From assembly GCA_016204995.1 (NCBI GenBank), contig JACQJR010000002.1:96551-160550 (forward strand): a stretch of 64,000 bases of DNA. The letters run 5' to 3'. A program made the translations under genes and the position numbers. The notes beneath the pieces were generated by a model. That model was not told the DNA's origin. It worked only from the letters and a program-made list of their open reading frames with translations, and made no database searches. This DNA is from Candidatus Microgenomates bacterium. GTDB taxonomy: Bacteria; Patescibacteriota; Microgenomatia; UBA8517; JACQJR01. Shown in pieces: positions 3,406 through 56,145 of the stretch (positions are counted from its first letter, which is position 1; the number at the start of each line of letters is the position of its first letter).

Positions 3406-4043
3406 CTACTGCGCCGTTTATGCTTCGCAAATTCAATGATAGCCGGCAGAATAGAAATAAGAATGATGGTCATAATTACTAAACTAAAATTATGTTTGAC
3501 TAACGGCAGGTTTCCAAAAAAGAAACCAGCCCAAACAAATAAAGTCACCCACAATAATCCACCCGCGATGTTATAAGATAAAAATTTCCGGTAATCCATT
3601 TTTCCAACTCCAGCGACAAAGGGAGCAAAAGTTCTTACCACCGGAATAAACCTGGCAATAATGATAGCTTTGCCACCATATTTATCATAAAAATCTTGTG
3701 TTTTTTTCAAATATTCTTTTTTTAAAAACCGGCCGCTTCTTGATGAATAAGCTCTCTCTCCAATAAAATTACCTATCCAATAATTGACTGTATCCCCGCC
3801 CACTGCTGCCAAAACTAAAACCAACCAGACAATTACTGGATTAATAAAATCACCAGCTGCCAAAGCACCTGCCGCAAAAAGCAAAGAATCGCCTGGCAAA
3901 AAGGGGGTCACCACAAAACCGGTTTCCGCAAAAACAATTAGAAATAATATTAAATAAGTTAGTGCTCCAAAGGCATTAAAGATAATCACTAAATAATCAT
4001 CAACATGCAAAATAATTTCTATGGGGTTAAGCGGTAAATCCAT
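3402..4043 (-). CDS. DedA/SNARE-associated family membrane protein
   Basis: VTPFLPGDSLLFAAGALAAG motif and DedA topology. 4-nt overlap with the upstream gene. Confidence 0.7.
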   Translation of the reverse strand: MDLPLNPIEIILHVDDYLVIIFNAFGALTYLILFLIVFAETGFVVTPFLPGDSLLFAAGALAAGDFINPVIVWLVLVLAAVGGDTVNYWIGNFIGERAYSSRSGRFLKKEYLKKTQDFYDKYGGKAIIIARFIPVVRTFAPFVAGVGKMDYRKFLSYNIAGGLLWVTLFVWAGFFFGNLPLVKHNFSLVIMTIILISILPAIIEFAKHKRRSR

Positions 4044-4044
4044 A

Positions 4045-4644
4045 TTAGTATGAGATAATTTTTACTTTACCAGAATCAAATGTTACTTCATAGCCGCTTT
4101 CCGTTTTTAGCTGCACCCGATAAAGATTGGCTTTACCATCGGAACGCAACTTTAACAAATCCGACTCCAGGGTGGTAAAAGTTTGACTATTGGTAGACAT
4201 TACAGAGCTTTCTACAGGTTCATTGCGGGTGACATTAAATAACCTCACCCAGGCCCGGCCGTTGCCATCCTTGAGTTTGATGGTAGCATACCAACGAGTG
4301 TCCTTCACACTGCCATATTCGCGAGTATTGAGATAAAAATCGGTAATTGATAAATCCTCCCAATCCAGTTTGATAGAAGAACCGGCGCCGGAAATTGTCA
4401 CATAATTTACTTTGGTGGATGATGTTTTGGGTAATTCAACTGTCGGCTGGGCTGACAGAGTGGCAATGGCTCGCGAGACCGCTTCGGTAATTTTGTTGGC
4501 GCAATCTTCGCCGCAAGTCTCTATCGCTTTCTCCGTGTTGTTTTGCGCCAGCGGCACACCGGGAACTATGGTCCCTATCTTGGAGAATAACCAAAAACCA
4601 CCGATAGCTAAAATAAGAGTCAGCAGGAAAATTTTAATGATCAT
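4045..4644 (-). CDS. hypothetical secreted/membrane-anchored protein
   Basis: N-terminal TM/signal anchor. No recognisable domain. Confidence 0.4.
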   Translation of the reverse strand: MIIKIFLLTLILAIGGFWLFSKIGTIVPGVPLAQNNTEKAIETCGEDCANKITEAVSRAIATLSAQPTVELPKTSSTKVNYVTISGAGSSIKLDWEDLSITDFYLNTREYGSVKDTRWYATIKLKDGNGRAWVRLFNVTRNEPVESSVMSTNSQTFTTLESDLLKLRSDGKANLYRVQLKTESGYEVTFDSGKVKIISY

Positions 4645-7524: not shown

Positions 7525-7594
7525 AAATTTAGGTTATTAGGTTACTGGGCTATTAGGCTCTTGGGCCTAATACTAATTATATCATAGTTGAAAA

Positions 7595-24439: not shown

Positions 24440-24883
24440 TTGATTATGGAGCACCTCAACGGCCACCAAGAACACCCCCATTTTATTAATACTTTTAGAG
24501 AAATAAAAAGCATATTAACCGAGCTTTTGCCTAATGATAAAAAATCTTTTGGTAAAGTAGTTTTAAAAAGACAAATAGGTTTAACTATTTACGAAAAGGA
24601 GCTGCCGGAAGAAGTAGGTGTCGCAGCTACCAAGCTAAACCAAGACTTATTTCTTCTTCGCCTGACCGAGGCGCATCAAGGCGTTGCTACACCTATAAAT
24701 TTAATTTTATTTTATGTCACCCCAGATAATTTATTAACCGCTACCTATCTGGATCGGGAAGATAAATATCCACCAAAAAATATATTTAATGATTTTCCCA
24801 ACGCAATTTTTACTTTACAAATCCTTAGGGTTATCCAGCAAAAACAGATCAATTCGCAAAGTACGATTCTAATACCTGTTTAG
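24440..24883 (+). CDS. hypothetical protein
   Basis: 147-aa ORF. No domain recognised. Confidence 0.35.
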   Translation: MIMEHLNGHQEHPHFINTFREIKSILTELLPNDKKSFGKVVLKRQIGLTIYEKELPEEVGVAATKLNQDLFLLRLTEAHQGVATPINLILFYVTPDNLLTATYLDREDKYPPKNIFNDFPNAIFTLQILRVIQQKQINSQSTILIPV

Positions 24884-26474
24884 TTATCGGCGCGGCCACC
24901 GACGATCCCTCACCGCCTCCTTCCACAATAGAGGTGACTACAATTTCTGGATTTTCTGCTGGCGCGAATGATGTAAACCAAGCGTGAGCTTTCTTTTTAT
25001 CATCCCCGAATTCAGCCGTTCCGGTTTTGCAAGCCACCGGCACTTTGAAATTAAAAAATACTCCTGCAGTTCCCCCGGGACTGCAAGCCCCGATCATCCC
25101 CTGTCTAATAACCTCAATCGTCTTCTGTTTTAATCCAATATCCTCACATTGGAAATTGGAAAGAAGCGAAGCTTGGCCTTTCAGGCTTGGAAATTGGAAA
25201 TTCTGCAAATCATCTTGCTTCATTATATGAGGAATGCACTTTTTACCACCTGATGCTATTATCCCAGTCATTACTGCTATCTGTAAGGGAGTCGCGGCAA
25301 CATCTCCTTGCCCAATTGCCATATGATAAGTATTACCCAAAAACCAACGTTCGCCCCGATTTCTTTCTTTCCAATCCGGGGTGGGAATTATACCGGCGGT
25401 TTCTCCAGTAAGTTCAACATTAGTTTTGGCTCCTAGCCCAAATTTTTTGGCCCACTCGGCTAACTTTTCCACCCCCACCCATTCACCCACCTTATAAAAG
25501 AAAGTATCTGTGGAACGGGTAATGGCGCTGACTATGCCAATTTCTCCTTCGGTCCGGCCGTATTTAGTAAAATACCAGTTATTATATTTAAAAGTCCCCA
25601 CCTGAATAAAACCGTTATCGGTAAATTTAGTAGTTTCATCTACTTTACCTTCTTCCAATCCTGCTGCCGACACTACTATTTTAAAAGTAGAACCAGGCGG
25701 GTAACTTCCACCAATGGCCCGATTAAATAACGGCTGATCGGGGTTAGCAATTAAACTGGCATAATTTGTGGCAAAATTATTGGGGTCAAACGATGGATAA
25801 GAGACTAAAGCTAATATTTCACCAGTGCCAGGATTTAATGCCACTACCGCTCCCTTTCGTTCTCCTAGAGCCGCTGCCGCTGCCTGTTGTAAGAACAAAT
25901 CAATTGATAATTTAACATCTTGTCCTTTTTGGGCCTCGCGCCGGCCCAACACCCGTACTTTGTTGCCTCGGCTATCTACTTCAACCAGCTCTTCTCCATT
26001 TTTACCCCGCAATAAACAATCAAAGGCGCTTTCTGCTCCTATTCTGCCAATTTCATCACCGATTTGATAAACGCTATTCGGGCATTCCGATTGGCCTAAT
26101 TCTTCACGAGTTGCTTCCCCGACATAACCAACTAAATGTGCTGCAACTGTTGCGACCGGATAAGTCCTATCCCAAACCAAAATAGCTACATCATTCTCCG
26201 AATCTTTAATTTCTTGGCCATCTATTAATGAAGCTGCTTTACCCGCTTCAAAATGTAAAATTTTTTTTGTCTGGCTATTTTGAGCCAATGGCATTCCATT
26301 ACGATCCAAAATTAAACCCCTTGGAGCGTGAATAGGAATAGCCCTAATTCTATTATTACGAGCTAAAGTTTGATAATAACCACCCCTGATTAAAGAAACA
26401 TCAATTAAACGAGCCGCCAGCACTAAAAAAATAATTAACGTGGCAATGGTCAACAAGCTTTTTCTCCACTCCAT
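24849..26474 (-). CDS. penicillin-binding protein 2/FtsI-type transpeptidase
   Basis: N-terminal TM anchor, SxxK (STFK), SxN, KTGTA motifs. Confidence 0.85.
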   Translation of the reverse strand: MEWRKSLLTIATLIIFLVLAARLIDVSLIRGGYYQTLARNNRIRAIPIHAPRGLILDRNGMPLAQNSQTKKILHFEAGKAASLIDGQEIKDSENDVAILVWDRTYPVATVAAHLVGYVGEATREELGQSECPNSVYQIGDEIGRIGAESAFDCLLRGKNGEELVEVDSRGNKVRVLGRREAQKGQDVKLSIDLFLQQAAAAALGERKGAVVALNPGTGEILALVSYPSFDPNNFATNYASLIANPDQPLFNRAIGGSYPPGSTFKIVVSAAGLEEGKVDETTKFTDNGFIQVGTFKYNNWYFTKYGRTEGEIGIVSAITRSTDTFFYKVGEWVGVEKLAEWAKKFGLGAKTNVELTGETAGIIPTPDWKERNRGERWFLGNTYHMAIGQGDVAATPLQIAVMTGIIASGGKKCIPHIMKQDDLQNFQFPSLKGQASLLSNFQCEDIGLKQKTIEVIRQGMIGACSPGGTAGVFFNFKVPVACKTGTAEFGDDKKKAHAWFTSFAPAENPEIVVTSIVEGGGEGSSVAAPITKQVLESYFAN

Positions 26475-33843: not shown

Positions 33844-33936
33844 AAAAGGCACCTTGGGGAGATATAAAAAATTTAAATCGCGTTTTGCGACAAATTTATA
33901 TATCACCTTACGGTGCCTTTAAGTATTCAGTTGTGG
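33844..33936 (+). repeat. Element Y copy A (structured repeat AAAAAGGCACC...AAATATCACC..GGTGCCTTT + TATTCAGTTGTGG)
   Basis: Outer stem GGCACC/GGTGCC encloses an internal AT-rich stem and a TCGC-gtttt-GCGA hairpin. About 85% identical to copy E at 58149. Confidence 0.6.
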
Positions 33937-35841: not shown

Positions 35842-36456
35842 ATGAAATTTGTTATTATTGATGAAAGTGGACGTTTATTTGACCCCAATGATAGATTTCT
35901 AATATTTGCAGCAGTTGTCACTGATACACTTGTTAACCTTGATAAAATCATACCTTCTGTTAAGAAAACACTACCCAGAAAGATAAAAATTGCAGAAATT
36001 AAATTCTCTAAAACTGGAGATAGAACCAGATTGAAAATACTTAAAGAAATTCACAGCAGGAAACTAAAACTATTTATTCTGGTAATTGATAAGGAAGGAC
36101 GAAAAATTAAAGATACTCCTGAAAATTATTCACTGTTAATAGCTACTCTGCTGAAGAAAATTATGAAGCGATACTCTACCACTTCACACATTTTAATAGA
36201 TAAACATTTCACTTGGGTGACTCAAAGAGAGAAATTCAATAAAAATATCCAGAAAATTTTGGCCCGTTCCTTATTTATTGAACATCTTGATAGCCAACAA
36301 AATACCATTGTTTCTTTGCCTGATTTCGTAGCAGGCGCAATCCGTGTTAGTTATACTAAAAACCAAAAATATTTCGCAGAAATAATAAATGATTTAATTG
36401 AAGAACAAATAGTTACAACCTGGAGGAAAATTAAACAAAAAATGGTAAAAGCTTAA
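35842..36456 (+). CDS. DUF3800-family protein
   Basis: N-terminal IIDESG motif and C-terminal SLPDFVAGAIR (DUF3800 'QLADFVAG' signature). AT-rich. Confidence 0.55.
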   Translation: MKFVIIDESGRLFDPNDRFLIFAAVVTDTLVNLDKIIPSVKKTLPRKIKIAEIKFSKTGDRTRLKILKEIHSRKLKLFILVIDKEGRKIKDTPENYSLLIATLLKKIMKRYSTTSHILIDKHFTWVTQREKFNKNIQKILARSLFIEHLDSQQNTIVSLPDFVAGAIRVSYTKNQKYFAEIINDLIEEQIVTTWRKIKQKMVKA

Positions 36457-36550: not shown

Positions 36551-36620
36551 AAAAAAGGCACCTTGGGGTAGATAAATTAGAGAATAAGTTATCTGTTCTC
36601 GGTTTTCAGTGTTCAGAATT
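36551..36620 (+). repeat. Element Y copy C (partial/degenerate)
   Basis: AAGCAAATTGGCCAAGAAAAAAGGCACCTTGGGGTAGAT 5' part matches copies A and E. The 3' half is degenerate (TTCAGTGTTCAG). Confidence 0.4.
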
Positions 36621-36655
36621 AGGTTTATCAGTAATCAGTTTACCAGTCAGTTATA

Positions 36656-37030
36656 CTAACTAAACTTTTTCCAAGTAGAGTGAAGCTTATTTAGCCTCCG
36701 GGAAAGTACCTTATATCTATCAATTAAGTCATCACAATCCTCTACTTTAATCCGAGTGAATGTTTTAGCTACGATTTTAATCTCCCGCAGATGGGTAATA
36801 ACTTCATCGGAAGAGCCAATGGCCATGGAAAGGAAGCGACAAAATTCGCGTGGAGAAGTTTTCTTACCGAATCCTTCGGCAATTTGAGGTGCAATCTTTT
36901 CCGCGGCTTCATTTAACTGATATCTCAATCTTTTGTAGATCGGTGGTAAGAGATTTGTTAAACTATAAACTGGATCAAGTAATTCTAAAGATAAATTGTA
37001 AACTTCCAAGTCTGTTACATCCTTAATCAT
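36656..37030 (-). CDS. four-helix-bundle protein (TIGR02436 / 23S rRNA intervening-sequence protein family)
   Basis: LEVYNLSLEL..LRYQLNEAAEKIAPQIAEGFGKKTSPREFCRFLSMAIGSSDEV matches the family pattern (QL.RAA.SI..NIAEG..R.S..EF..FL.IA.GS..E). 65 nt downstream of the ATPase, same strand. Confidence 0.65.
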   Translation of the reverse strand: MIKDVTDLEVYNLSLELLDPVYSLTNLLPPIYKRLRYQLNEAAEKIAPQIAEGFGKKTSPREFCRFLSMAIGSSDEVITHLREIKIVAKTFTRIKVEDCDDLIDRYKVLSRRLNKLHSTWKKFS

Positions 37031-37095
37031 ACTGATAAACAGAAAAACTGGTAAACTATTATCTGATAACTGACACCCGAAAACCGATCACTGAC

Positions 37096-39261
37096 TCATT
37101 CCTTTACCTTCCGGCCATAGCGTTCTCGAGATAAACGTTTGATCTTATCTTTATTCTCATTTTTCAGGCTCGGCAAGGGCAAAGTGTTGGCTGGGAAAGG
37201 CGAAGAGGTCATATTATCAATTGACAGCCGGGCAATAATTTCATATTTACCCAAAGCCACTAAATCATTTTCCGTATATAATTCGCCAAATTCTTTAGTC
37301 AAAATCCGGGCATCCGTCGCCCCTACCACGAATGATAAAAGCGTGCCGGCATTGCCAAAAATAGCCTTCTGAATCCCCTCTTCCAGTTGGCCAATATACT
37401 GATTGGCTAGGGTGAGCGACAGCCGATATTTGCGCGCTTCGGATAAGATTTTAATAAAGGAGCTTGTGGCAAAATTTTGAAATTCATCCACATAGAGGAA
37501 AAAATCCCGCCGTTCTTCTTCTTGAGTAAATGAACGGTTCATAGCGGCCAGCTGTAGTTGAGTAATAATCATCGCCCCCAGCAAAGAAGCATTATCCTCG
37601 CCCAATTTGCCCTGCGATAAGTTCAAAATTAAAATTTTACCTTCGTTCATAATCTGCTCAAGGTCAATCGTAGACTTGGGATTACCGACAATATTTCTGA
37701 TCATCTTGGAAGAAACGAACTGGCCAACCTTATTTTGAATTGGCGAAATGGCTTCAGTACGAAGGTTATCAGACATTCTTTCAAATTCCTTTTGCCAGAA
37801 GTTTTTCAAAACCGGGTCCTGCAAACGATCCACCACCCGCTCCCGGAAATTCCGGTCATTAAGCAAATTTAAAATATCCACTAAAGTACTACCTTCTACT
37901 TCCAAAAGGGTCAGAATGACATTGCGCAAAATATATTCCAGCCGTGGCCCCCAGCTCTCCCGATACAATTTGTAAAAAATGGAGATAATGCCCGAGGCCA
38001 CCAAATCTTTATGCTGGCGATTTTTAATTTCTAAAACGTTTAGAGAAAAAGGCCTTTCACTGTCAAAAGGTTCCAGATAAACTACGTCTGACACCCGCCG
38101 GGCCGGAATATAATCTAGAATGACCTCGGAGAGATCACCGTGCGGGTCAATAATGCCCACCCCTCGGCCCTTTCTAATATCATCAATCGCCATATTGGCA
38201 ATTAAAGTAGATTTGCCGGTGCCGGTTTTGCCGACAATATAGACGTGGCGGCGGCGATCAATTGTTTTGATACCAAAAATAGTTTCCTGATTTCTAAAGT
38301 TAGTCTTGGCAAAAAAGTTAACATCCTGCTTTTGCTCATCAGTCATAGCACTGGCTGCCGGCAAATTCTGCGGTGGCTCACCCAGTAAAGTCTTGCCCCA
38401 GGCAATATTTTTGATATTAGCCAGAAGTATGGCTGGCGGATGCCACAGACTGGCCAGTTCTTGGGCATTGAGAATTTGCTGCTGTCTTTCCAAGAAAGCC
38501 ACTTTTCGCTCGCGGATGCGAGCCAACAACCTGCCTTTGCGCAGTATTGGTCGCTTAAAAACTAACTGGTTGCCGCCGCCCAAAGAGAAACTGCCAAAAG
38601 TGCCGGCCAGATTTTGTAAAATTGGCTTGGTCGGCTGGCTATCAGAACCCGCCGCAATCCGAATCACCGCCCGCCCCCCTTGAAAAGAAGTTTTGCGTTC
38701 AATTAATATCCGCTGCGGATTTTGGCTGTAGCGATCAGAAGTCGGATCGTAAGTTTGGGTTTTAAGACTGGCCGTAGCTTTAGCTTGCCAGGGAAAAGTA
38801 GCCGGCGTCACAATAATTTGTACCATGATTTTAGTATCATTATCTTGCTTGGATAAAAAACCCAACAGTGAAGCCAAGGGGTCAACGTCGCGAAAATCCA
38901 AGTAGGTTTTAATCGGCAGATAGAAATAGGAGTTTAAGGCCAGCTCGCCTATTTCCAGATTTTTGGATTTCAAAACTTCAAAAAGGGGATCGGAGGTAGC
39001 GGCAATTTGAGCTTTGGGATAGGAAGAAGTGACTAAACTTTCCATGAAATTTTTGTGAGCATTAGTTGTAGTGACATAAAAATAAATAGTGGAATTAACG
39101 AGATAAATTTCAAAGCTAAAAGTTCCCTGCTTGGTAAACAGCCATTTCCAACCCGGCAAATACGGCCGCGATAAGACAGAGGCGAAGATTTGCGCGGCAC
39201 TTTCAGTAGGCGTCTCATCGTCTTTGGAAAGCTTAAGTTGAATATGGCTAAGCTGCGGCAT
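37096..39261 (-). CDS. FtsK/HerA/VirD4(T4CP)-superfamily P-loop ATPase, cytoplasmic (DUF87/type-IV-DNA-transfer-like)
   Basis: Walker A (GKTGTGKST), IIDPHGD motif, Walker B (FFLYVDEFQNF), arginine-finger/sensor region (ARKYRLSLTLANQ). About 330-aa N-terminal domain of unknown function. No TM segments. Confidence 0.55.
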   Translation of the reverse strand: MPQLSHIQLKLSKDDETPTESAAQIFASVLSRPYLPGWKWLFTKQGTFSFEIYLVNSTIYFYVTTTNAHKNFMESLVTSSYPKAQIAATSDPLFEVLKSKNLEIGELALNSYFYLPIKTYLDFRDVDPLASLLGFLSKQDNDTKIMVQIIVTPATFPWQAKATASLKTQTYDPTSDRYSQNPQRILIERKTSFQGGRAVIRIAAGSDSQPTKPILQNLAGTFGSFSLGGGNQLVFKRPILRKGRLLARIRERKVAFLERQQQILNAQELASLWHPPAILLANIKNIAWGKTLLGEPPQNLPAASAMTDEQKQDVNFFAKTNFRNQETIFGIKTIDRRRHVYIVGKTGTGKSTLIANMAIDDIRKGRGVGIIDPHGDLSEVILDYIPARRVSDVVYLEPFDSERPFSLNVLEIKNRQHKDLVASGIISIFYKLYRESWGPRLEYILRNVILTLLEVEGSTLVDILNLLNDRNFRERVVDRLQDPVLKNFWQKEFERMSDNLRTEAISPIQNKVGQFVSSKMIRNIVGNPKSTIDLEQIMNEGKILILNLSQGKLGEDNASLLGAMIITQLQLAAMNRSFTQEEERRDFFLYVDEFQNFATSSFIKILSEARKYRLSLTLANQYIGQLEEGIQKAIFGNAGTLLSFVVGATDARILTKEFGELYTENDLVALGKYEIIARLSIDNMTSSPFPANTLPLPSLKNENKDKIKRLSRERYGRKVKE

Positions 39262-39329: not shown

Positions 39330-39441
39330 AAAAAAAGGCACCCCGCGGGAAATATCTTGCGGTTAAGCAAAAATATCACCTTTGAGGTGCCTTGATACTA
39401 TTTTGAGCTTGCGAAAAACAAGCTTCGCTTATTCAGTTGTG
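39330..39441 (+). repeat. Element Y copy D
   Basis: AAAAAAAGGCACC...CTTGC-ggtta-GCAA...AAAATATCACC-tttga-GGTGCCTT, then an extra AGCTTG/CAAGCT hairpin, then TATTCAGTTGTG. Lies 3' of minus ORF 39429..39647. Confidence 0.5.
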
Positions 39442-40365: not shown

Positions 40366-40959
40366 ATGAGTGTCCAGAAAATTTTGACAGTGCAGAATCC
40401 GGTTTTGCGGACATCGGCTAAAAAAGTCACCCAATTTGATAAACGAATTGAACGGTTAATCACTGATTTAATTGATACTTTAAAAGTGCAAAAAGACCCC
40501 ATCGGAGTCGGTCTTGCTGCTCCTCAAATTGGCAAGTCCATAAGACTTTTTGTCGCTAAATTGGGTAAGGATATTATTCCCTTTATAAATCCGGAAATTA
40601 CTTGGAAATCTGAAAACACTAACGACCCAAAACCAACTAAACGTTTTCCTAAGAGCCTAGAAGCCCAAGAGCCCATAAGCCCCGAATACATCATGGAAGG
40701 ATGTCTGTCTCTTCCCCATTTTTACGGCCCAGTCCAGCGGGCCCACCAAGTCACAGTTCGTTATCAGACTCCAAAATTGGAAATTGGAAATTGGAAATTG
40801 GAAATTACGACGAAGTCGTTTAGTGGGCTGGCCGCGCAAATTATTCAACACGAAACAGACCATTTAAACGGCACATTATTTATTGATAATTTACTTCATC
40901 AAAAGCGTAAACTTTATAAATGGGAAGGCAAAGAATGGGAAGAAGTGGAATTACCGTAG
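40366..40959 (+). CDS. def: peptide deformylase
   Basis: Motifs GVGLAAPQIG, EGCLS, HETDHLNG. Contains in-frame repeat-derived inserts (KSLEAQEPISP, and a (GGAAATT)n tract encoding KLEIGNWKLEI). Confidence 0.85.
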   Translation: MSVQKILTVQNPVLRTSAKKVTQFDKRIERLITDLIDTLKVQKDPIGVGLAAPQIGKSIRLFVAKLGKDIIPFINPEITWKSENTNDPKPTKRFPKSLEAQEPISPEYIMEGCLSLPHFYGPVQRAHQVTVRYQTPKLEIGNWKLEITTKSFSGLAAQIIQHETDHLNGTLFIDNLLHQKRKLYKWEGKEWEEVELP

Positions 40960-41004
40960 GCAATTCAGGGCGTTAGGACATTAGGTATTTAGGCTCTTAG
41001 GCAT

Positions 41005-41367
41005 ATGAGCGATTTTACCAAATTAAAAATATGGCAGAAATCTCACGAATTATCATTGGAGGTTTATCATCTTACTGCAAAACTACCTAAAGAAGAAACT
41101 TTCGGCTTAATGTCACAGTTACGCCGAGCAGCAGTATCAGTAGAATCTAATATTGCCGAGGGCGAATCAAGATTTAGTAGTAAGGATAAACTAAATTTCT
41201 TTATCCAAAGTCGCGCATCTATCGGCGAGGTCCAGACACAATTACTTTTAGTAGCTGATTTATATCAGCAATTAAAGAGTAAAGCTTTACAATTAAAAGA
41301 AGAATATACTAATCTTTATAAACAAATAAATAGTCTTGTTTCTTATAGAAGAAAAAACGATTTATGA
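41005..41367 (+). CDS. four-helix-bundle protein (23S rRNA IVS protein family)
   Basis: KLKIWQKSHELSLEVYHLT..QLRRAAVSVESNIAEGESRFS family pattern. Inserted between def and fmt. Confidence 0.65.
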   Translation: MSDFTKLKIWQKSHELSLEVYHLTAKLPKEETFGLMSQLRRAAVSVESNIAEGESRFSSKDKLNFFIQSRASIGEVQTQLLLVADLYQQLKSKALQLKEEYTNLYKQINSLVSYRRKNDL

Positions 41368-42431
41368 ACCCTAACAGCCCAAGAGCCCTGCCTGCGCAGG
41401 CAGGCCAACAGCCCAAGAGCCCTCCTCTCGTTTTTTTCAGCACACCAGACTATGTGCTGCCAGTATTGGAACAGCTAAAAAATGCCGGTTATGAAATTGC
41501 AGCTATTGTTTCCCAGCCACCCAAACCAGTTGGCAGGAAACAAATTTTAACACCAACTCCTACTGCTGTTTGGGCTAGCCAAAATAACATCCCCAATCTT
41601 GATGCTTCACCTAAAACTTTAATTGAACCTTTACAAAAAATTGGCGCGACCATTGCCATTCTGGCTTCCTACGGCCGGATTATTCCGCAGGCAATTATTG
41701 ATGTTTTTCCACAAGGCATCTTAAATATTCACCCCTCACTTTTACCAAAATTTCGCGGTGCTTTACCGGTAGAAGGAGCATTGGTAGCAGGCGAAAGCGA
41801 AACCGGCGTGACTATTATCAAATTGGATGCCGAAATGGATCATGGTCCCATTGTTTCTCAAATTACCGAAAAAATTAATAAGGATGACACTAAAATTACT
41901 TTAAGAAAAAGATTATTTGAAAAAGGGGCCGCTGAATTAATTAAAGTCTTACCAGACTACTTAGCTGGCAAAATCGCACTGCAAGAACAAGATCACACTC
42001 AAGCTACTTATACCACTTTGATGAAAAAAGAATACGGCTTTATCCCGCCGCAATATTTGGAAGCTGCATTTAAAGGTGAGACTTTAGAGGAAAAATGGCC
42101 CATCCCATTCATAAAAGACTTTTCCCTAGTACCTAGTGCCTATTCCCTTCACAATTTTATCCGTGCTATTAACCCCTGGCCCGGAGCATACACTGAAGTA
42201 ATACTACCAATAAATACCAATACTACCAATAAGCAAAGCTTGGCCCTTCGGGCTAATTACCAATCAACTAAAAAAAGATTAAAAATTCTGAAATCTCACT
42301 TAGAAAACCTAGTAGCCCAAGAGCCTAATGCCCCAACAGTCCACTTAGTGCCTGACTTGGTCCAATTAGAAGGCAAAAATCCCGTTTCTTGGCAACAATT
42401 TAAACAAGGCTACCCCAACTTCACTTTCTAA
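41364..42431 (+). CDS. fmt: methionyl-tRNA formyltransferase
   Basis: Formyltransferase core (NIHPSLLPKFRGALPV) and a C-terminal Fmt domain. The N-terminal extension contains the CCTGCCTGCGCAGGCAGG palindrome (ALPAQAGQ). ATGA overlap with the upstream gene. Confidence 0.85.
   Translation: MNPNSPRALPAQAGQQPKSPPLVFFSTPDYVLPVLEQLKNAGYEIAAIVSQPPKPVGRKQILTPTPTAVWASQNNIPNLDASPKTLIEPLQKIGATIAILASYGRIIPQAIIDVFPQGILNIHPSLLPKFRGALPVEGALVAGESETGVTIIKLDAEMDHGPIVSQITEKINKDDTKITLRKRLFEKGAAELIKVLPDYLAGKIALQEQDHTQATYTTLMKKEYGFIPPQYLEAAFKGETLEEKWPIPFIKDFSLVPSAYSLHNFIRAINPWPGAYTEVILPINTNTTNKQSLALRANYQSTKKRLKILKSHLENLVAQEPNAPTVHLVPDLVQLEGKNPVSWQQFKQGYPNFTF
41387..41404. repeat. 18-nt perfect palindrome CCTGCCTGCGCAGGCAGG in-frame at the fmt N-terminus
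   Basis: Encodes ALPAQAGQ. Flanked by CAGCCCAAGAGCCC repeats. Confidence 0.6.
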
Positions 42432-42451
42432 TTTCTGATATTATTATCTTT

Positions 42452-43378
42452 ATGACTCTAAGACAAAAAGGAATTTTAGCTTTATTAATTGCGGTCATAT
42501 TATGGGGACCGGCGCCGGTGGTGACCAAACTGGCCTTACAAGAAATTCCTCAATTTTCCCTGACCTTTTTACGCTTTGCTATCGCCACTCCAATTATCTT
42601 TTTGTTATTTTTCAGGCAAAAAAATCGTCAAATTAAAAAAAGCGACTTCTTATTATTTTTTATCGCTGGCATTGTCGGCTCGGTAATTAATTCTCTCTTT
42701 TTCTTTTACGGCATCCAGATTACTTCAGCTACCGCCAGCCAAGCTATTTTTACTGCAACACCCGTTATTACTGCCCTCTTGGCTCACTTTTTCCTAAATG
42801 AAAAAATTAAATCTCTGCAGTGGATCGGAGTTTTGGTGGGCTTAACCGGCGCTACTTTGGTGGCTGTTAAAGGATATTTTGAAAATGGCAAAGTAACCGA
42901 TAACAGTATGCTGGGAAATTTTTTAATATTTTTGGCAGCTATCAGCTGGGTGATTTATATTTTAATTTCTAAAAAATTATCCGCCCGCTATTCGCCGACC
43001 ACCATTACCGCCGTCTCTTTTTTAATCGGCCTGGCGGCTTTTATCCCTTTTGCCATATGGGAAAATATGGTCAGTAGCGCCTGGATCGGCCAGCTGGGTT
43101 TCAAGGGTATCTTTGGAGCAGTTTATCAGGGAATTTTTGCCTCCGTTTTGGCAGTTCTGGCCTATCAGACAGGCTTGAAATTAACCAGCGCTTTTGCCGC
43201 CGGCGTCATTCTTTATCTTAATCCAATTATTACCACCCTAGTGGCCGTACCAGTTTTGGGAGAAAAAATTACTGTGTTGTTTTTAATAGGCAGTATTCTC
43301 ATCCTTCTTGGCTCCTTCATTTCCACCCAACTGGAAATGGTCAAAAACCACGTCAGAAAAAGAATTTTTAGGCAGTAA
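42452..43378 (+). CDS. EamA/DMT-family transporter
   Basis: 10 TM helices, two EamA repeats. Confidence 0.7.
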   Translation: MTLRQKGILALLIAVILWGPAPVVTKLALQEIPQFSLTFLRFAIATPIIFLLFFRQKNRQIKKSDFLLFFIAGIVGSVINSLFFFYGIQITSATASQAIFTATPVITALLAHFFLNEKIKSLQWIGVLVGLTGATLVAVKGYFENGKVTDNSMLGNFLIFLAAISWVIYILISKKLSARYSPTTITAVSFLIGLAAFIPFAIWENMVSSAWIGQLGFKGIFGAVYQGIFASVLAVLAYQTGLKLTSAFAAGVILYLNPIITTLVAVPVLGEKITVLFLIGSILILLGSFISTQLEMVKNHVRKRIFRQ

Positions 43379-43592
43379 CTGGAACTTGGGGAGTTTGTTT
43401 GGAACCAGCATTTTTCTTCATTCTTTTCAAACACTTGGTACAAATTTTGATTTGTACCTTTTTACCATCTAAGACAATTTTTTTCCAATGCAGATTAGGT
43501 AGAAAAACCCGTCTAGTGTGTACGCCGGAATGCGAAACATTCCGCCCCACCACTTTACCTTTACCGCAAATAGCACAACGCATTCCAGACAT
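43368..43592 (-). CDS. rpmB: 50S ribosomal protein L28
   Basis: CAICGKGKVVGRNVSHSGVHTRRVFLPNL matches the L28 signature (RRF.PNL). Confidence 0.75.
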   Translation of the reverse strand: MSGMRCAICGKGKVVGRNVSHSGVHTRRVFLPNLHWKKIVLDGKKVQIKICTKCLKRMKKNAGSKQTPQVPVTA

Positions 43593-43767
43593 ATACTGGA
43601 AATTATACTGAAAAATAAGTTAAAATACAAGAAGAATTAACCTAATTGCTCTAACGCGAAGCGCCAAGTTTTGCTTAATTAACCTAATTCCTAAATAAAT
43701 CCTAATGACTAAATTGGGAAATTTCCTAATCTTGGGATTTAATTAGGTTAATTAGAAATTTAAAACT

Positions 43768-44385
43768 ATGTTCGGCGCACTAGAACCAACCCAGTTGATT
43801 ATTTTTATCTTGGCGTTACTTTCCGCCATCACTATTCATGAATTTTCTCACGCATTAATGGCTGACAAATTAGGCGATCCCACACCGCGTCTACAGGGCC
43901 GCTTAACCTTAAATCCCCTGGCCCATCTTGACCCCCTGGGTACCATCCTATTATTTTTAGTTCATTTTGGCTGGGGCAAACCGGTGCAGTTTGATCCTTA
44001 TAATTTGGCAAATCCGAGGCGCGACGCCGCCATTATTTCATTTGCCGGCCCGGCCAGTAATTTAATTTTGGCCGCCATTTTGGCACTTATTGCCCGCACC
44101 AATCCTCAAGCTTTACTGATACTGGTACCTTTTATCCAGCTTAATGTGGTGCTGGCAATTTTTAATTTAATTCCCATTCATCCTCTGGACGGCGGAAAAG
44201 TTTTAGTGGGATTGCTTGATCCGAAAACAGCCAGCGAAGTTGACAGATTTATGAGCCACTACGGCCTGATCATTTTGTTAATTCTAATCTTTCCTCTTTT
44301 TGGTGCACCTTTAATCTCTAGTATTTTATCGCCCATTCTTAACCTCATTCTTAATATTCTTCTACCCACCACACCTTTGATTTAA
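43768..44385 (+). CDS. M50-family (site-2 protease-like) membrane metalloprotease, small form
   Basis: HEFSHAL (HExxH) in TM1, polytopic, C-terminal LDGG-like motif (HPLDGGKV). Confidence 0.65.
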   Translation: MFGALEPTQLIIFILALLSAITIHEFSHALMADKLGDPTPRLQGRLTLNPLAHLDPLGTILLFLVHFGWGKPVQFDPYNLANPRRDAAIISFAGPASNLILAAILALIARTNPQALLILVPFIQLNVVLAIFNLIPIHPLDGGKVLVGLLDPKTASEVDRFMSHYGLIILLILIFPLFGAPLISSILSPILNLILNILLPTTPLI

Positions 44386-44417
44386 TCACCTGTGATGCCC
44401 TTTGATATCTTGACTCG

Positions 44418-44446
44418 CGCACTAAATTTTTATAAAATAACTTATC
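44418..44446 (+). promoter_or_regulatory. sigma70-like promoter (TTGACT-N17-TAAAAT) for the leader/ncRNA + tRNA operon
   Basis: Canonical hexamers with 17-nt spacing directly upstream of the structured leader and the tRNA-Thr/Tyr/Thr genes. Confidence 0.45.
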
Positions 44447-44655
44447 CCTGCCAAAGGGAGAAGCAAGGACCTTTTCCTTACCAAACACTTTTTCGGGAGA
44501 ACGAAGTTCGGCTTAGCCTCGGCTAAGAAGACAGTTCACCCACCTTTCTCTAACAAGGGAAAGAGCCTCATGCGCTACCCCAGGCAGGGATTTTATTACC
44601 CCACTAGTTTCCCAATCTACCACTTTTCTGATATAATTTCCCTTGAAGCTGGAAA

Positions 44656-44727
44656 GCCCTTCTAGCTCAATGGCAGAGCGACGGTTTTGTAAACCGCTGA
44701 CCGCAGTTCGATTCTGCGGAAGGGCTC
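44656..44727 (+). tRNA. tRNA-Thr (anticodon UGU)
   Basis: Cloverleaf folded by hand. 7-bp acceptor GCCCTTC/GAAGGGC, D-arm GCTC..GAGC, anticodon loop TTTGTAA, T-arm CGCAG-TTCGATT-CTGCG. One A-C mismatch at the top of the anticodon stem. Confidence 0.6.
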
Positions 44728-44730
44728 CGG

Positions 44731-44813
44731 GCCGTGGTGGCGGAGTGGGCAATCGCACCAGACTGTAAATCTGGCGCCGCAAGGCTGCGTAGGTTCGAAT
44801 CCTACCCACGGCA
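44731..44813 (+). tRNA. tRNA-Tyr (anticodon GUA), long variable arm
   Basis: Acceptor GCCGTGG/CCACGGC, anticodon stem CCAGA/TCTGG with loop CTGTAAA, long variable arm, T-arm GTAGG-TTCGAAT-CCTAC. Confidence 0.7.
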
Positions 44814-44897
44814 CTTAAATAGTGATGGGTTATGGGTTGTGAGTTATGGTTATGGACAAATATTCCGAACTCATCACTTTGAACCCATAACTATCTG

Positions 44898-44969
44898 GCC
44901 TAGGTGGCTCAGTGGTAGAGCACGTTCTTGGTAAGAACGGGGTCGCGGGTTCGATTCCCGCTCTAGGCT
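44898..44969 (+). tRNA. tRNA-Thr (anticodon GGU)
   Basis: Acceptor GCCTAGG/TCTAGGC (one G-U), D-arm GCTC-AGTGGTA-GAGC, anticodon stem CGTTC/GAACG with loop TTGGTAA, T-arm GCGGG-TTCGATT-CCCGC. Confidence 0.7.
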
Positions 44970-44993
44970 CATAATATAATGATGAGTTGAAGG

Positions 44994-45365
44994 TTGGGGG
45001 TTATGAGCGAGAATAATGGATTTAGATTTGAAGAATTACAAGTTTACCAAAGAGCTTTAAATTTTGCGAATGAAGTTTATGAAATCAGCAACCAATGGCC
45101 CAGAGAACATGTTTTTTCTTTAACAGATCAATTAAGAAGAGCATCACTCTCTGTAGCCTTAAATATTGCTGAAGGAGCAAGTAGAACTAAATTAGAATTT
45201 AAAAGATTTATAACTATTAGTAGGGGTTCCTGTCATGAATGCATCCCTATTATAGAAATAGCTTTTAGGCAAAAATTAATTGATATAAAAAGAAAGGAGG
45301 TATGGTTAAACGAGGTTACAACATTATCTAAAATGTTAAGTAAACTTAAGAGTTCAATAGTTTAA
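44994..45365 (+). CDS. four-helix-bundle protein (23S rRNA IVS protein family)
   Basis: ELQVYQRALNFANEVYEIS..QLRRASLSVALNIAEGASR family pattern. Inserted between tRNA-Thr and rpmG, flanked by 9-mer tandem repeats. Confidence 0.65.
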   Translation: MGVMSENNGFRFEELQVYQRALNFANEVYEISNQWPREHVFSLTDQLRRASLSVALNIAEGASRTKLEFKRFITISRGSCHECIPIIEIAFRQKLIDIKRKEVWLNEVTTLSKMLSKLKSSIV

Positions 45366-45399
45366 ATCATAACTATGAACTCTAAACTCATAACTAACT

Positions 45400-45580: not shown

Positions 45581-45652
45581 TAGGGGTGTGGTGAAATGGT
45601 ATCACAGCAGTCTCCAAAACTGCTTTTTCAGGTTCGAATCCTGACACCCCTG
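45581..45652 (+). tRNA. tRNA-Trp (anticodon CCA)
   Basis: Acceptor AGGGGTG/CACCCCT, D-arm GTGA-AATGGTA-TCAC, anticodon stem GCAGT/ACTGC with loop CTCCAAA, T-arm TCAGG-TTCGAAT-CCTGA. Confidence 0.7.
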
Positions 45653-45780
45653 CTACGTTCAGCTCGCTATTAACATGGCTCTTGAACGTAGTAAACCACA
45701 ATTTTATCTGTTATTTGAGGATCTATTTGAAATATTGCGAGCATGAACCGTAGCCTGCTACAAATCAGCTCATTTCATTC

Positions 45781-46059
45781 GTGATTGTAGCGAGCTATAC
45801 TTATTTCGTATACTACTTTTACATTCTCCGCAGCCTTAAAAATGGAAAGTTATACCTCGGTCAAACTTCCGACCTAAAAGCAAGAGTTAAATCCCACAAT
45901 AATGGAGAAAATAAAGCAACAAAACCAAATATCCCTTATGAACTTATCTTTTATTCTGCTTTCAAAGATGAAAAGGATGCAATTAATTGCGAAAAATATT
46001 TTAAGACAACAGCAGGCTGGAAAAGAATTCATAAAATGCTTGAGAACATAATAAAATAA
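45781..46059 (+). CDS. GIY-YIG nuclease-domain protein (small, stand-alone)
   Basis: YFYILRS..GKLYLGQTSDLKARVKSHNNG..E.Y.K matches the GIY-YIG (YxY..G.YIG.T.DL..R...H) pattern. The N-terminal ~10 codons of the ORF may not be translated. Confidence 0.55.
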   Translation: MIVASYTYFVYYFYILRSLKNGKLYLGQTSDLKARVKSHNNGENKATKPNIPYELIFYSAFKDEKDAINCEKYFKTTAGWKRIHKMLENIIK

Positions 46060-48159: not shown

Positions 48160-48720
48160 ATGAAGATTAAAGATTTTCGTGAGCGACCGCTCCTATTCAT
48201 TGATTTAGAAATGTCCGGCCTTAATCCTTTGATCCATGAAATTTTAGAAGTTGGGGTATTAGTAGTAGATGGCAAGACTTTGGGAATAAAAGCCGAGTAT
48301 GAAGCCAAAGTCAAACCAGAACATATTGAAACTGCCGATCCGCTGGCCCTGCGTATCAATGGCTATAAAACAGAAAACTGGAAAGACGCTAAACCATTAA
48401 AAAAAATTTTAGAAGATTTAAATAAACTGGCCCCCGAGGGCATGATTGTTGGTTTTAACGTCGTCTTTGACTCCATGTTTTTAGATTTGGGATTTCGTAA
48501 ATTTAATATCAAGCCCAACTTTGATTACCATATTTTAGATGTCTTAAGTTTGGCCTGGGCTTATGTTTTACCTGACAGTAACGTCCACGAAGTAAAACTA
48601 TCAACTCTTTGTAAACATTTTGGCATTGAGCGAAAAGAAAAACACCGGGCGTTGGCAGATATTAAGGCGACATACGAGCTTTTTACAAAGCTCATGGGCA
48701 TTAGGCAATTGGGTAATTAG
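48160..48720 (+). CDS. DEDDh 3'-5' exonuclease (DnaQ/epsilon-like)
   Basis: Exo I (LFIDLEMSGLNP..EILEVG), Exo II, Exo III (HRALADIKATYELF). Confidence 0.75.
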   Translation: MKIKDFRERPLLFIDLEMSGLNPLIHEILEVGVLVVDGKTLGIKAEYEAKVKPEHIETADPLALRINGYKTENWKDAKPLKKILEDLNKLAPEGMIVGFNVVFDSMFLDLGFRKFNIKPNFDYHILDVLSLAWAYVLPDSNVHEVKLSTLCKHFGIERKEKHRALADIKATYELFTKLMGIRQLGN

Positions 48721-48982
48721 GCTATTAGGTTTTCTGACCTAGGAGCCAAAGAGCCTAACGCCCTAAAAGCCTATTACTCCAGCTTTCTACAAATTCTTTC
48801 CGATCGCAAATAAAACAAATAAAATGTCAAGTTTCAGGTGTCCTACCTAAACCACCTCTAAGGTGATTAATCCTTGACACCTATTTAACCAAAGAAAAAA
48901 GCGCTCTTGGTATAAAACCCATCATTAAAAAATGATGTCCGATTACTCGGCAAGAGCGCTTACTAATTTAGTTGCGAGATTG

Positions 48983-54587: not shown

Positions 54588-54679
54588 TTAATTCTTCACC
54601 ACCTTTCATAATAAATTCGAAATCACAAATCCGAAATACTAAATAAATTCAAAAGTTTTGAATTTTGAAAATTCAAATT

Positions 54680-55219
54680 TTAGGATTGTTTCGAATTTAG
54701 TGCTTCGGATTTCGTGCTTAAGATATAAACTAATTTAGACATATTTGCCTGTAATGTACCAGTTAACTGGTACATTGGCGCGTTTAATACCCCCAGCAGT
54801 TGTCCAAATAAAACTTCGCGGCCCGGCAAACGCGATAATTTCAGAAGTGCTGCCGCGTCCTGAACCGTGCCGGAAATAATTCCTGCCTTGAGAGCTAGTA
54901 ATTCAAATTCTTTGATAAATTTACCCAAAACTTGAATTGGTGCCAGCTCATCTTGCTGGGCAATTACTATCGCAGTCTGACCAGTTAAAGACGAAACAAT
55001 ATTATCTGATAATTCTTTTAAATTAGAAGCTACCAGCGATCTTTTCAGAAGAGTATTTTTAGCCACCAGCATTTTACTGCCAGCCTCGCGCAACCGGCGG
55101 CGTAAAGTCTCCTGCTCACTAACTTTCAAGCCAGTTAAATTTACCAAAACGAGCGATTTAGCGTCATTAATTTTGGCTGTTAAGTCGTTTACAAAAATGA
55201 TTTTTTCTGGTTTTTTCAT
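54680..55219 (-). CDS. rplJ: 50S ribosomal protein L10
   Basis: L10 family pattern. Immediately upstream of rplL on the same strand. Confidence 0.85.
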   Translation of the reverse strand: MKKPEKIIFVNDLTAKINDAKSLVLVNLTGLKVSEQETLRRRLREAGSKMLVAKNTLLKRSLVASNLKELSDNIVSSLTGQTAIVIAQQDELAPIQVLGKFIKEFELLALKAGIISGTVQDAAALLKLSRLPGREVLFGQLLGVLNAPMYQLTGTLQANMSKLVYILSTKSEALNSKQS

Positions 55220-56064: not shown

Positions 56065-56145
56065 AAAGGCTCCTTGGCTCTTAGGCTACTAGGCTCTTTG
56101 GTAAAATTCTTCCTAATGACCTAATAGCCCAATGCCCCAAAAGCC
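56065..56145. repeat. tandem degenerate 9-11-mer repeats (GGCTCTTAGGC / GCCTAATAGCC family)
   Basis: GGCTCCTTGGCTCTTAGGCTACTAGGCTCTTTGG...CCTAATGACCTAATAGCCCAATGCCCCAAAAGCC. The same family occurs at 7528-7575, 32735-32765, 40963-41002, 44822-44892, 48698-48775 and in-frame in def, fmt and the Wzy-like gene. Confidence 0.5.

Follow-up and report, generated by a model that had tools for sequence, protein, structure and literature searches.

The window, a stretch of 64,000 nt from a Candidatus Microgenomates bacterium, raises the question of what three small genes of one family are doing among otherwise adjoining housekeeping genes, and whether they behave as mobile or selfish cassettes, as a sequence-only reading of this DNA had proposed. 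We consider it probable that they are the ORFs of palindromic cassettes of the intervening-sequence (IVS) type, each consisting of a 120- to 124-aa PF05635 four-helix-bundle (4HB) gene within inverted arms of 7–8-nt units and inserted whole. The discrete insertion cassette was thus upheld, but recent or ongoing mobility and dispensability of the gene were not.

All three TIGR02436-type genes were present and exceeded both curated cut-offs. Copies A, B and C scored 57, 108 and 106.6 bits with PF05635 (cut-off 33.8) and 55.6, 107.9 and 100 bits with TIGR02436 (cut-off 24). No 4HB copy beyond these three was present in the 64-kb window. Their pairwise identity was 28–37%, with no near-identical (recent) copies in the window, and A, B and C appear to be old paralogues. 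A domain search of the cassette ORF returned PF05635 only, with no HUH or other transposase domain, and none of the three proteins matched a PADLOC defence-system model. The structure of copy B, the one copy modelled, was predicted as four helices (pLDDT 94.7) and was closest to XCC0516 (2GSC; TM 0.90–0.92, rmsd 1.3–1.5 Å; also a sequence-profile match, E = 7e-31) and to BT_0352 (2RLD; TM 0.78–0.88). The immediate neighbours of the three copies were def, fmt, tRNAs, rpmG, an ATPase gene and a DUF3800 gene.

Each of the three ORFs lay between inverted arms of tandem units, G/T-rich on the upstream side and C/A-rich on the downstream side. These repeats had been described as 9-mers flanking two of the copies; their period proved to be 7–8 nt, and all three copies had them. 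The earlier positions 36656 and 41005 for copies A and B stand, but 44994 for copy C most likely does not (see below).

Cassette A (36588..37093, minus strand, approximately 506 nt from arm to arm) starts 2 nt past the stop codon of a gene for a DUF87/TrwB-type ATPase (37096..39261, minus strand). Its 5′ arm (37031..37093, minus strand) is a G/T-rich 7-nt array of the CAGTTATC/GGTTTTC type, its ORF (36656..37030, minus strand) encodes 124 aa with the PF05635/TIGR02436 domain, and its 3′ arm (36588..36655, minus strand) is a C/A-rich array reverse-complementary to the 5′ arm. The arm duplex was predicted at -50.3 kcal/mol (z -6.7) with 48 arm-to-arm pairs, and the arms were paired in both the MFE and the centroid structures of the whole RNA (-132.9 kcal/mol, z -3.68). 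The ATPase had been taken as part of an island. Copy A does adjoin it, but an ATPase homologue (34.5% identical) exists in the relative L032, with tRNA genes and no 4HB gene after it, so that the site downstream of the ATPase is unoccupied there.

Cassette B lies between def (peptide deformylase; 40366..40959, plus strand) and fmt (methionyl-tRNA formyltransferase; 41364..42431, plus strand), and the ATGA overlap of its ORF with fmt is in the sequence, as had been noted. The 5′ arm (40960..41004, plus strand), an 8-nt NNNNTAGG array, fills the space from the def stop to the 4HB start. The ORF (41005..41367, plus strand; 120 aa, PF05635/TIGR02436) ends in a stop that overlaps the fmt start, and the 3′ arm (41368..41423, plus strand), a CCYAANNN array broken by a GC palindrome, is translated as fmt residues 2–20. 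Arm pairing was moderate in the window (z -1.4 to -1.6, 21 pairs). The 5′ arm also pairs with an array at 40648–40668 inside def, a gene with two in-frame array insertions (40648–40686 and 40765–40812) and a TIGR00079 match in two stretches.

For its start codon fmt relies on cassette B, because the only canonical start codon of fmt is the ATG at the cassette junction, overlapping the 4HB stop, and translation from it turns the right arm into an N-terminal extension. Alignments of distant fmt proteins to the window protein begin only at about residue 22, and at an empty def-fmt site the N-terminus of fmt is MKLVFFGS. The description of def and fmt as conserved neighbours was borne out, the two genes abutting in 16 of 18 distant loci. 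A relative with the pair adjacent and no insert was also found: in the syntenic L049, def and fmt overlap directly.

Cassette C lies where it had been placed, between a block of tRNA-Thr(tgt), tRNA-Tyr(gta) and tRNA-Thr(ggt) genes (44656..44970, plus strand) and rpmG (ribosomal protein L33; 45400..45573, plus strand), which is followed by tRNA-Trp (45582..45653). Its 5′ arm (44971..45002, plus strand) consists of degenerate GAGTTRNGG-type units, and its 3′ arm (45366..45399, plus strand) of CTCATAAC-type 7-nt units that run up to the rpmG start codon. The ORF (45003..45365, plus strand; PF05635/TIGR02436) most likely begins at ATG 45003, not at the TTG 44994 of the mechanical ORF, because the 100%-identical NCBI protein has the corresponding 120 aa. 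In the window the arms paired weakly (7 pairs, z -1.6 to -2.6), but the orthologues had stronger pairing (z -3.6 to -6.2) and clearer arrays, such as GAGTTAG x4 in L045. In L042, L045 and L049, too, the orthologous cassette comes after this tRNA-Thr/Tyr/Thr block. Between tRNA-Tyr and tRNA-Thr of the window block, an ORF-less hairpin of GGGTTATGG/CCATAAC arrays (44815..44893, plus strand) shares its unit type with the cassette C arms.

Comparison of contexts indicates that the unit inserted is the entire arm-ORF-arm segment of about 430–510 nt. A-type cassettes were found in four contexts with unrelated flanks (inside a 23S rRNA gene, at a ychF-rpsF junction, after a hydrolase gene and after the window ATPase gene), their proteins being 69–76% identical. 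In the alignment of the four, homology begins at CAGTGATCGGTTTTC and stops at GAAAACCGAGAACAGATAAC, so that the boundaries are sharp from arm to arm. The rRNA case is from Gottesmanbacteria (L135), in which the LSU rRNA gene is interrupted by a homologue of copy A (69% identical) that has arms of the same type: rRNA homology breaks off at 4931 and picks up at 5445. B-type cassettes occurred at def-fmt, at atpG-atpD and ahead of a PrgI/TraC (type IV secretion) operon, and atpD, like fmt, has an N-terminal extension there. Across 80 diverse loci the neighbours were unrelated housekeeping genes belonging to 174 Pfam families (the rml operon, metH/metF and tmk among them), with 81% and 74% of neighbours co-oriented and median gaps of 42–55 nt.

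Signs of recent mobility were sought and did not appear. Target duplications had been suggested as a check, and none was visible as a shared direct repeat at the four A-type junctions, where sequence divergence limits the power of the test. The 25 most common neighbour families of the 80 loci included no mobility or defence family and no transposase, integrase or recombinase. The PF05635 family did not occur in the phage collection and was seldom found on plasmids. Synonymous-site identity of the 4HB genes equalled that of their flanks and was equally saturated, and thus gave no sign of recent transfer. At the protein level, conservation of the 4HB products exceeded that of def, fmt, L33 and L28. 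Together, saturation and conservation show B and C to be ancient in the lineage, inherited vertically with their flanks, not recently mobile, and under stronger purifying selection than the adjoining essential genes, which speaks against a dispensable passenger.

These results also fit, in part, an alternative that we regard as possible although rather unlikely: that the 4HB genes are fixed host genes for a nucleic-acid-binding factor of translation or RNA metabolism, that the stems serve autoregulation or transcript stability, and that the varied contexts reflect ordinary rearrangement over long times. Such a role would suit proteins that outdo def, fmt, L33 and L28 in conservation at equal synonymous saturation, and a copy A subfamily with more than 120 homologues at 69–80% identity, nearly all of 124 aa, in several candidate phyla. 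It would also suit the several translation-linked contexts (def/fmt, tRNA/rpmG, ychF/rpsF and 23S rRNA). Likewise, orthologues occupying the same loci with conserved flanks, the outcome that the sequence-only reading held to count against it, were largely what we observed: copy B was at def-fmt in four other lineages and copy C at the tRNA-rpmG site in three relative lineages, with tRNA-rpmG adjacency without the insert not seen among the loci examined. However, def-fmt was empty in the syntenic L049, and none of 20 distant fmt-centred loci, most from other CPR lineages, had a 4HB gene at a distance of up to about 20 kb. Rearrangement of a host gene also accounts poorly for homology that stops exactly at the arm termini between contexts, for a location inside a 23S rRNA gene and for so many unrelated neighbour families.

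The inverted-arm anatomy was a family-wide property in unrelated bacteria. In a test set of de-replicated cassettes from unbiased metagenome loci of unrelated genomes, arm pairing had a median z of -2.85, with 47% of cassettes below -3 (n = 74), compared with a median of -0.34 and 1.9% for control genes of the same loci (n = 160; Mann-Whitney test, P = 6e-13; Fisher test, odds ratio 47, P = 1e-17). A 7–8-nt periodicity was found in 41–47% of arms vs. about 5% of control flanks. An extreme example of an arm pair was GGGACTA x7 facing TAGTCCC x6, and the same arm-ORF-arm anatomy was present at NPUN_RS33770 of Nostoc punctiforme. Arm unit type tracked protein clade, and arm sequences differed between cassettes of one genome. 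Among arm mismatches, G.U (34) was not in excess of A.C (30; P = 0.71), and therefore RNA-level constraint on the arms was not demonstrated.

Within the window, 17 strict arrays were counted, 7 of them intergenic vs. 1.9 expected by chance. Arrays also occurred at sites without a 4HB gene and within coding sequences, so the cassette is not their only setting; the ORF-less hairpins were of the TTAGG and GGTTATG unit types. As a separate observation, the weak arms of B (z about -1.5) and C (-1.6 to -2.6) in the window run counter to the IVS-type model. It seems very improbable that the arrays beside the 4HB genes are just intergenic hairpins of the kind common in this genome, serving as terminators or processing sites, with no specific tie to the genes between them. 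Array hairpins at other gene boundaries, arrays inside coding sequences, and the heptamer arrays known from Xanthomonas and Nostoc (PMC4692102) and from Beggiatoaceae (PMC4679880), which have no stated 4HB link, speak for this explanation. Against it stand a 47-fold excess of arm complementarity across the ORF relative to control genes of the same loci in unrelated genomes, and arms that move together with the ORF between contexts and whose unit type goes with the protein clade. A role for the 4HB proteins as the Avd accessory factors of diversity-generating retroelements is hardly credible, in spite of weak similarity to NF033474 (21.7 bits for B, 30 bits for C) and phrog_3206 and a TM of 0.75–0.83 to 4DWL, since the NF033474 scores are far below the equivalog cut-off of 80 bits, copy A had no match, no reverse transcriptase is among the immediate neighbours of A, B and C, and XCC0516 and BT_0352 are structurally nearer than Avd.

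Under the favoured reading as IVS-type cassettes, the cassette would be transcribed as part of the host operon, whose genes it mostly shares an orientation with and adjoins closely, and pairing of its arms would then enclose the ORF in a long double-stranded stem, as in rRNA IVSs. On the precedent of rRNA IVSs, such stems would be RNase III substrates. A cut in the stem of cassette B would part fmt from its start codon, so cleavage would not be the whole story there. Given its homology with XCC0516, the 4HB protein would form pentamers, and it may bind nucleic acid like its structural homologue Avd, possibly at its own arm arrays. Insertion may have required host recombination or a trans-acting factor, because no recombinase travels with the cassette.

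Among known systems, the closest are the 23S rRNA IVSs of Coxiella burnetii (with S23p) and Leptospira, whose ORF family, PF05635, is that of the window cassettes. In Coxiella a 28-bp inverted-repeat stem that is cleaved by RNase III borders the ORF (PMC4990558), and a sporadic distribution, with horizontal acquisition followed by vertical maintenance, was proposed earlier (PMC4990558). The likeness extends to a length of about 430–510 nt and to complementary termini whose pairing encloses the ORF in a long stem (48 pairs in cassette A, partial in B, and weak in C but clear in its orthologues); an A-type homologue is itself inside a 23S rRNA gene. In contrast, the window cassettes lie in mRNA and tRNA operons, none of them in an rRNA gene, and B gives an essential gene its start codon and an N-terminal extension. 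Their arms are 7–8-nt tandem arrays, and RNase III processing is in their case proposed by analogy. The Coxiella ORF was reported to be decaying and untranslated (PMC4990558), whereas purifying selection on the window ORFs is strong.

According to the retrieved passage of a CPR survey, 23S_rRNA_IVP ORFs occur in 16S and 23S rRNA insertions (10.1101/2024.02.27.582315). Host group (CPR/Patescibacteria) and protein family are those of the window copies, but the survey was limited to rRNA genes, and the passage mentions neither arms nor copies in protein operons. XCC0516 (2GSC), described as a pentamer (PMC4990558, PMC10053308), and BT_0352 (2RLD) share the four-helix-bundle fold, and each entry contains five chains. 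Avd (4DWL; ribonucleoprotein 8UB7/8UBE) has a homologous fold (TM 0.64–0.84 to the copy B model) and contacts RNA and reverse transcriptase, which makes it the sole functional precedent for the 4HB fold family. It differs in that no reverse transcriptase and no template or variable repeats were found beside the window copies, which score under its equivalog cut-off.

The STRR repeats of heterocystous cyanobacteria are heptameric tandem repeat arrays. Comparable heptamers are GGGAATC in Xanthomonas and GGGGATT in Nostoc (PMC4692102), and TAACTGA in Beggiatoaceae and cyanobacteria (PMC4679880). The arrays of Xanthomonas, Nostoc and Beggiatoaceae are built of 7-nt tandem units and lie for the most part between genes, often immediately ahead of start codons, and those of Xanthomonas frequently form convergent inverted pairs. 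The window arrays differ as matched inverted arms around an ORF, with a unit that varies by locus. A term search of the two papers turned up nothing on four-helix proteins, S23 or intervening sequences, and we found no literature describing heptamer-array arms around PF05635 genes. With REPIN/RAYT systems and MITEs the cassettes share a single gene between inverted short repeats, here terminal inverted repeats, and ORF-less hairpins of similar units, which may derive from the cassettes as in REPIN/RAYT systems, are dispersed in the window. Unlike both, the cassettes lack an HUH or other transposase domain, show no target-site duplication, do not form a multicopy family of near-identical members and vary in arm sequence within one genome.

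A broader proposal, which we advance tentatively as the less likely outcome, is that PF05635 4HB genes and their inverted 7–8-nt array arms together make up palindromic insertion cassettes of a widespread but so far overlooked class, able to colonise any transcribed locus (rRNA genes, tRNA clusters, operon junctions), with the protein as the factor that binds its own arrays, and with the dispersed heptamer arrays (STRR-type, GGGAATC, TAACTGA) as ORF-less relatives or landing sites. If this were true, such arrays would relate to 4HB cassettes much as REPINs relate to RAYTs, and rRNA IVSs would be merely one location where such cassettes got named.

All three four-helix-bundle (4HB) genes claimed for the window, which comes from a Microgenomates genome (Patescibacteria, CPR), were recovered: copy A (36656-37030, minus strand, after an ATPase gene), copy B (41005-41367, plus strand, between def and fmt) and copy C (44994/45003-45365, plus strand, between the tRNA-Thr/Tyr/Thr block and rpmG) each exceeded the curated cut-offs of PF05635 and TIGR02436. 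A search of all window ORFs with a profile from the three gave no fourth copy. Their mutual identity was 28-37%, so they are old paralogues. The identities of def, fmt, rpmG, the tRNA-Thr/Tyr/Thr block and tRNA-Trp were verified, as was the ATGA overlap of the copy B stop codon (TGA) with the fmt ATG. Copy B, the only copy modelled, was predicted as a confident four-helix bundle (pLDDT 94.7). Its best structural matches were XCC0516 (2GSC, TM 0.90-0.92) and BT_0352 (2RLD), followed by the DGR protein Avd, and a sequence profile match likewise supported the relation to XCC0516. Identity with DGR Avd was rejected (score below the cut-off, no reverse transcriptase among the neighbours).

Around the three copies and in homologous loci, the flanks followed a constant plan, with a G/T-rich array of 7-8-nt units 5′ of the ORF and, 3′ of it, a C/A-rich array that is the reverse complement of the first. 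Unit sequence varied between loci, and the two arms within one locus matched each other. Among inverted pairs of the window lying within 700 nt, the arms of copy A ranked fifth in length; the whole of cassette A folded at -132.9 kcal/mol (z -3.68), with the arms paired in both the MFE and the centroid structure. The arms of copy B paired partially (21 pairs), those of copy C barely (7 pairs), and both were clearer in orthologues than in the window. Arm mismatches, compared as a possible sign of constraint on the RNA, showed no excess of G.U over A.C (34 G.U vs 30 A.C, P = 0.71). In the window sequence, the right arm of cassette B was broken by a GC-rich palindrome (GCCTGCGCAGGC core, 41389-41405), which was missing from the orthologues in the alignment and is translated within the fmt N-terminal extension.

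Comparison of homologues showed that the insertion unit is the arm-ORF-arm cassette. The copy A subfamily comprised >120 homologues (69-80% identity, nearly all 124 aa) in Levy-, Gottesman- and Daviesbacteria, and placement differed in every lineage examined (a handful of contexts per subfamily). The window has the cassette behind the ATPase gene, Levybacteria carry it between ychF and rpsF-ssb-rpsR, and in locus L137 it follows a hydrolase gene; in a Gottesmanbacteria genome (locus L135) it lies within the 23S rRNA gene, where rRNA homology breaks off at 4931 and picks up again at 5445. When these four loci were aligned, the homologous stretch began at CAGTTATCGGTTTTC, spanned the ORF and ended at GAAAACCGAGAACNGATAAC; the sequences outside were unrelated. 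Gene calls for the fetched loci were mechanical (longest ORFs). Homologues of copy B at 68-76% identity also occupied the def-fmt junction and showed the same overlap of stop and start codons, and an identical protein occurred on two short contigs, apparently in the same arrangement. More distant homologues lay between atpG and atpD (63% identity) and, in a Saccharimonadales genome, ahead of a PrgI/TraC-like operon (62%). Between these contexts, homology was again confined to arm, ORF and arm, with the arms complementary. The Gottesmanbacteria 23S rRNA gene also contained two LAGLIDADG ORFs upstream of the cassette (2920-4219) and thus holds several different insertions; two 5S rRNA matches lay downstream of it.

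The same anatomy was found across the family. A metagenome scan by 4HB alignment yielded 80 diverse loci (37-55% identity), chosen by a conserved peptide pattern independently of their flanks; GC content was 0.51-0.68 in the ten inspected, so the set is not all CPR-like. Pairing energy between the 60 nt upstream and the 60 nt downstream was compared with shuffles that kept mononucleotide content only, which is conservative where a G-rich arm faces a C-rich one. Distinct 4HB cassettes (n = 74) had a median z of -2.85, with 65% below -2 and 47% below -3, whereas ordinary genes of the same loci (n = 160) had a median of -0.34, with 6% and 1.9% below these thresholds (Mann-Whitney test, P = 6e-13; Fisher odds ratio 47, P = 1e-17). 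A periodicity cut-off of 0.85 admitted only ~10% of arms, and graded thresholds were therefore applied; at a lag-match of 0.7, periodicity, nearly always of 7 or 8 nt, was present in 47% of the arms upstream and 41% of those downstream, compared with ~5% of control flanks. Nostoc punctiforme PCC 73102 shares the arm-ORF-arm anatomy: its NPUN_RS33770 is preceded by CAGGAGT x8 and followed by ACTCCTG-type units. The XCC0516 locus of Xanthomonas, likewise a tractable organism, is possibly a further case. Hidden rRNA intervening sequences (IVSs) were ruled out as an explanation of the cassettes with the strongest arms, because none of the 20 strongest loci had an Rfam match or lay within an rRNA gene.

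Cassette occupancy is polymorphic between lineages. A def-fmt site without the insert was present in locus L049, which has the gene order of the window (Wzy_C, def, fmt, rpmB, M50 peptidase, tRNAs, 4HB, rpmG); there, the end of def runs straight into the start of fmt (ATGA overlap), and Fmt begins with MKLVFFGS. The relatives found by a search with fmt were all distant, none exceeding 46% identity; in 16 of 18 such loci def and fmt abutted, and no 4HB gene lay within about 20 kb. In locus L032, tRNA genes come after the homologue of the window ATPase. Among the relatives' contexts examined, none had an empty tRNA-rpmG site; the order tRNA-Thr/Tyr/Thr, 4HB, rpmG, tRNA-Trp was kept in L042, L045 and L049, with the 4HB proteins 68-69% identical. 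The sequence-only reading had suggested that the gene behaves as a small mobile or selfish cassette. Copies B and C largely speak against this, since relatives carry orthologous copies with conserved flanks at their sites, but copy A, whose placement differs by lineage, does not. The target duplications suggested for the insertion flanks did not appear in the A-type junction alignment.

The 4HB proteins of copies B and C are under tighter constraint than the adjacent essential genes. Copy B was 69% identical between the window and L024 (def 40%, fmt 34%), 68% between the window and L040 (def 38%, fmt 37%) and 76% between the window and L023 (fmt 56%); copy C was 68% identical to its counterpart in L049 (rpmG 49%, rpmB 52%, def 44%). 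Recent horizontal transfer, which could also give high 4HB identity, was ruled out by codon usage: at residues identical between genomes, the fraction of identical codons was 0.37-0.59 in 4HB genes and 0.33-0.68 in their neighbours. Since these fractions are equal, cassettes and flanks are of the same age, and purifying selection explains the high protein identity. Phage carriage was likewise rejected, the phage collection containing no member of the family, and 27 of 72,556 plasmid records carried one, mostly cyanobacterial megaplasmids. Membership of a defence system was ruled out because the 4HB proteins matched none of the PADLOC models. Among the 25 most frequent neighbour families of the 80 loci there were no defence families and no transposase or integrase.

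Neighbours in the 80 loci spanned 174 Pfam families, mostly housekeeping. The upstream neighbour was co-oriented with the cassette in 55 of 68 cases and the downstream neighbour in 51 of 69; of 63 cases, 38 had both neighbours in the orientation of the cassette and 5 had both opposite. Median gaps between cassette and neighbour were 42-55 nt, about one arm length. At the occupied def-fmt and atpG-atpD sites, the ATG of the downstream gene overlaps the end of the 4HB ORF, and translation through the C/A-rich arm adds 15-25 residues at the N terminus. No alternative canonical start codon precedes the conserved core at these sites, so initiation of fmt depends on the cassette.

The ATPase (37096-39261; 721 aa, DUF87/TrwB-type) matched the PADLOC mad8 (E 5.5e-18) and HerA models, and a DUF3800 gene (35842-36456) is convergent to cassette A. 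Because a relative carries a 34.5%-identical ATPase in another neighbourhood, the window ATPase may belong to the conserved genes of CPR and not to an island. Directly past tRNA-Trp lies a 92-aa stand-alone GIY-YIG nuclease-domain ORF (45781-46059); its site looks like a variable spot, since relatives hold other, variable genes between rpmG/tRNA-Trp and secE-nusG. In Roizmanbacteria (L024-L031), several AbiEii/DUF6922 (toxin-antitoxin-like) gene pairs follow fmt, their number differing among near-identical contigs.

Arrays with a 7-9-nt period also occurred in frame within def (40648-40686 and 40765-40812), fmt (42200-42231) and, on the minus strand, ORFs 19448-21532 (20214-20390) and 24849-26474 (25148-25202). 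They seem to produce lineage-specific protein insertions, because one def array falls where the TIGR00079 match is interrupted (about residues 87-107), and in def AAATTGG x4.7 codes for KLEIGNWKLEI. For CPR annotation, the lesson is that arrays encode the fmt and atpD N-terminal extensions and some internal insertions, such as those in def. Between genes, ORF-less hairpins (48695-48760, 56067-56145, 54608-54720, 43660-43760 and 7529-7575) each consisted of a G/T-rich array followed by a complementary C/A-rich array, several with the TTAGG unit type of the cassette B arms. These hairpins may be empty relatives of the cassette or its landing sites, and recombination between cassette arms and same-unit hairpins present in the window is a possible route of movement. 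A distinct repeated motif, AAAGGCACCTTGGGG..GATA (33845-33920, 39335-39393 and 36553-36580), forms a hairpin with GGTGCCTT in two instances and is unlike the 7-8-nt arrays.

Avd, to our knowledge the only characterised member of the 4HB fold family, functions inside a ribonucleoprotein. The cassette may be transcribed together with its host operon, whereupon the arms would pair into a long stem, RNase III might process it, and a pentameric 4HB protein could bind nucleic acid. A cut in the cassette B stem would part fmt from its own start codon. In the Coxiella IVS, an ORF of the 4HB family lies within a 28-bp inverted-repeat stem that is cleaved by RNase III (PMC4990558), and a study of CPR rRNA insertions describes IVS-protein ORFs in them (10.1101/2024.02.27.582315).

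We know of no function assigned to the rRNA IVS ORF since the early 1990s, nor of an explanation for the heptamer tandem arrays of cyanobacteria, xanthomonads and sulfur bacteria. Earlier work had established the 4HB family, its relation to Avd and its occurrence in rRNA IVSs, also in CPR (PMC4990558, PMC10053308, 10.1101/2024.02.27.582315), and had described heptamer arrays without a known function (PMC4692102, PMC4679880). In the searchable literature, which is incomplete, nothing was found linking the arrays to the 4HB family, and we did not find stated the family-wide bracketing of the ORF by inverted 7-8-nt arrays, the presence of one cassette in the rRNA of one lineage and in operons of others, or the use of an arm as coding sequence by host genes. 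The present data join these two old puzzles: as a rule, the IVS ORF travels within a discrete arm-ORF-arm cassette, with heptamer-type arrays of this kind as its arms, and the habitat of the cassette is mostly outside rRNA, within ordinary operons. A former "hypothetical protein" thereby becomes a defined genetic element, present in the tractable Nostoc punctiforme.
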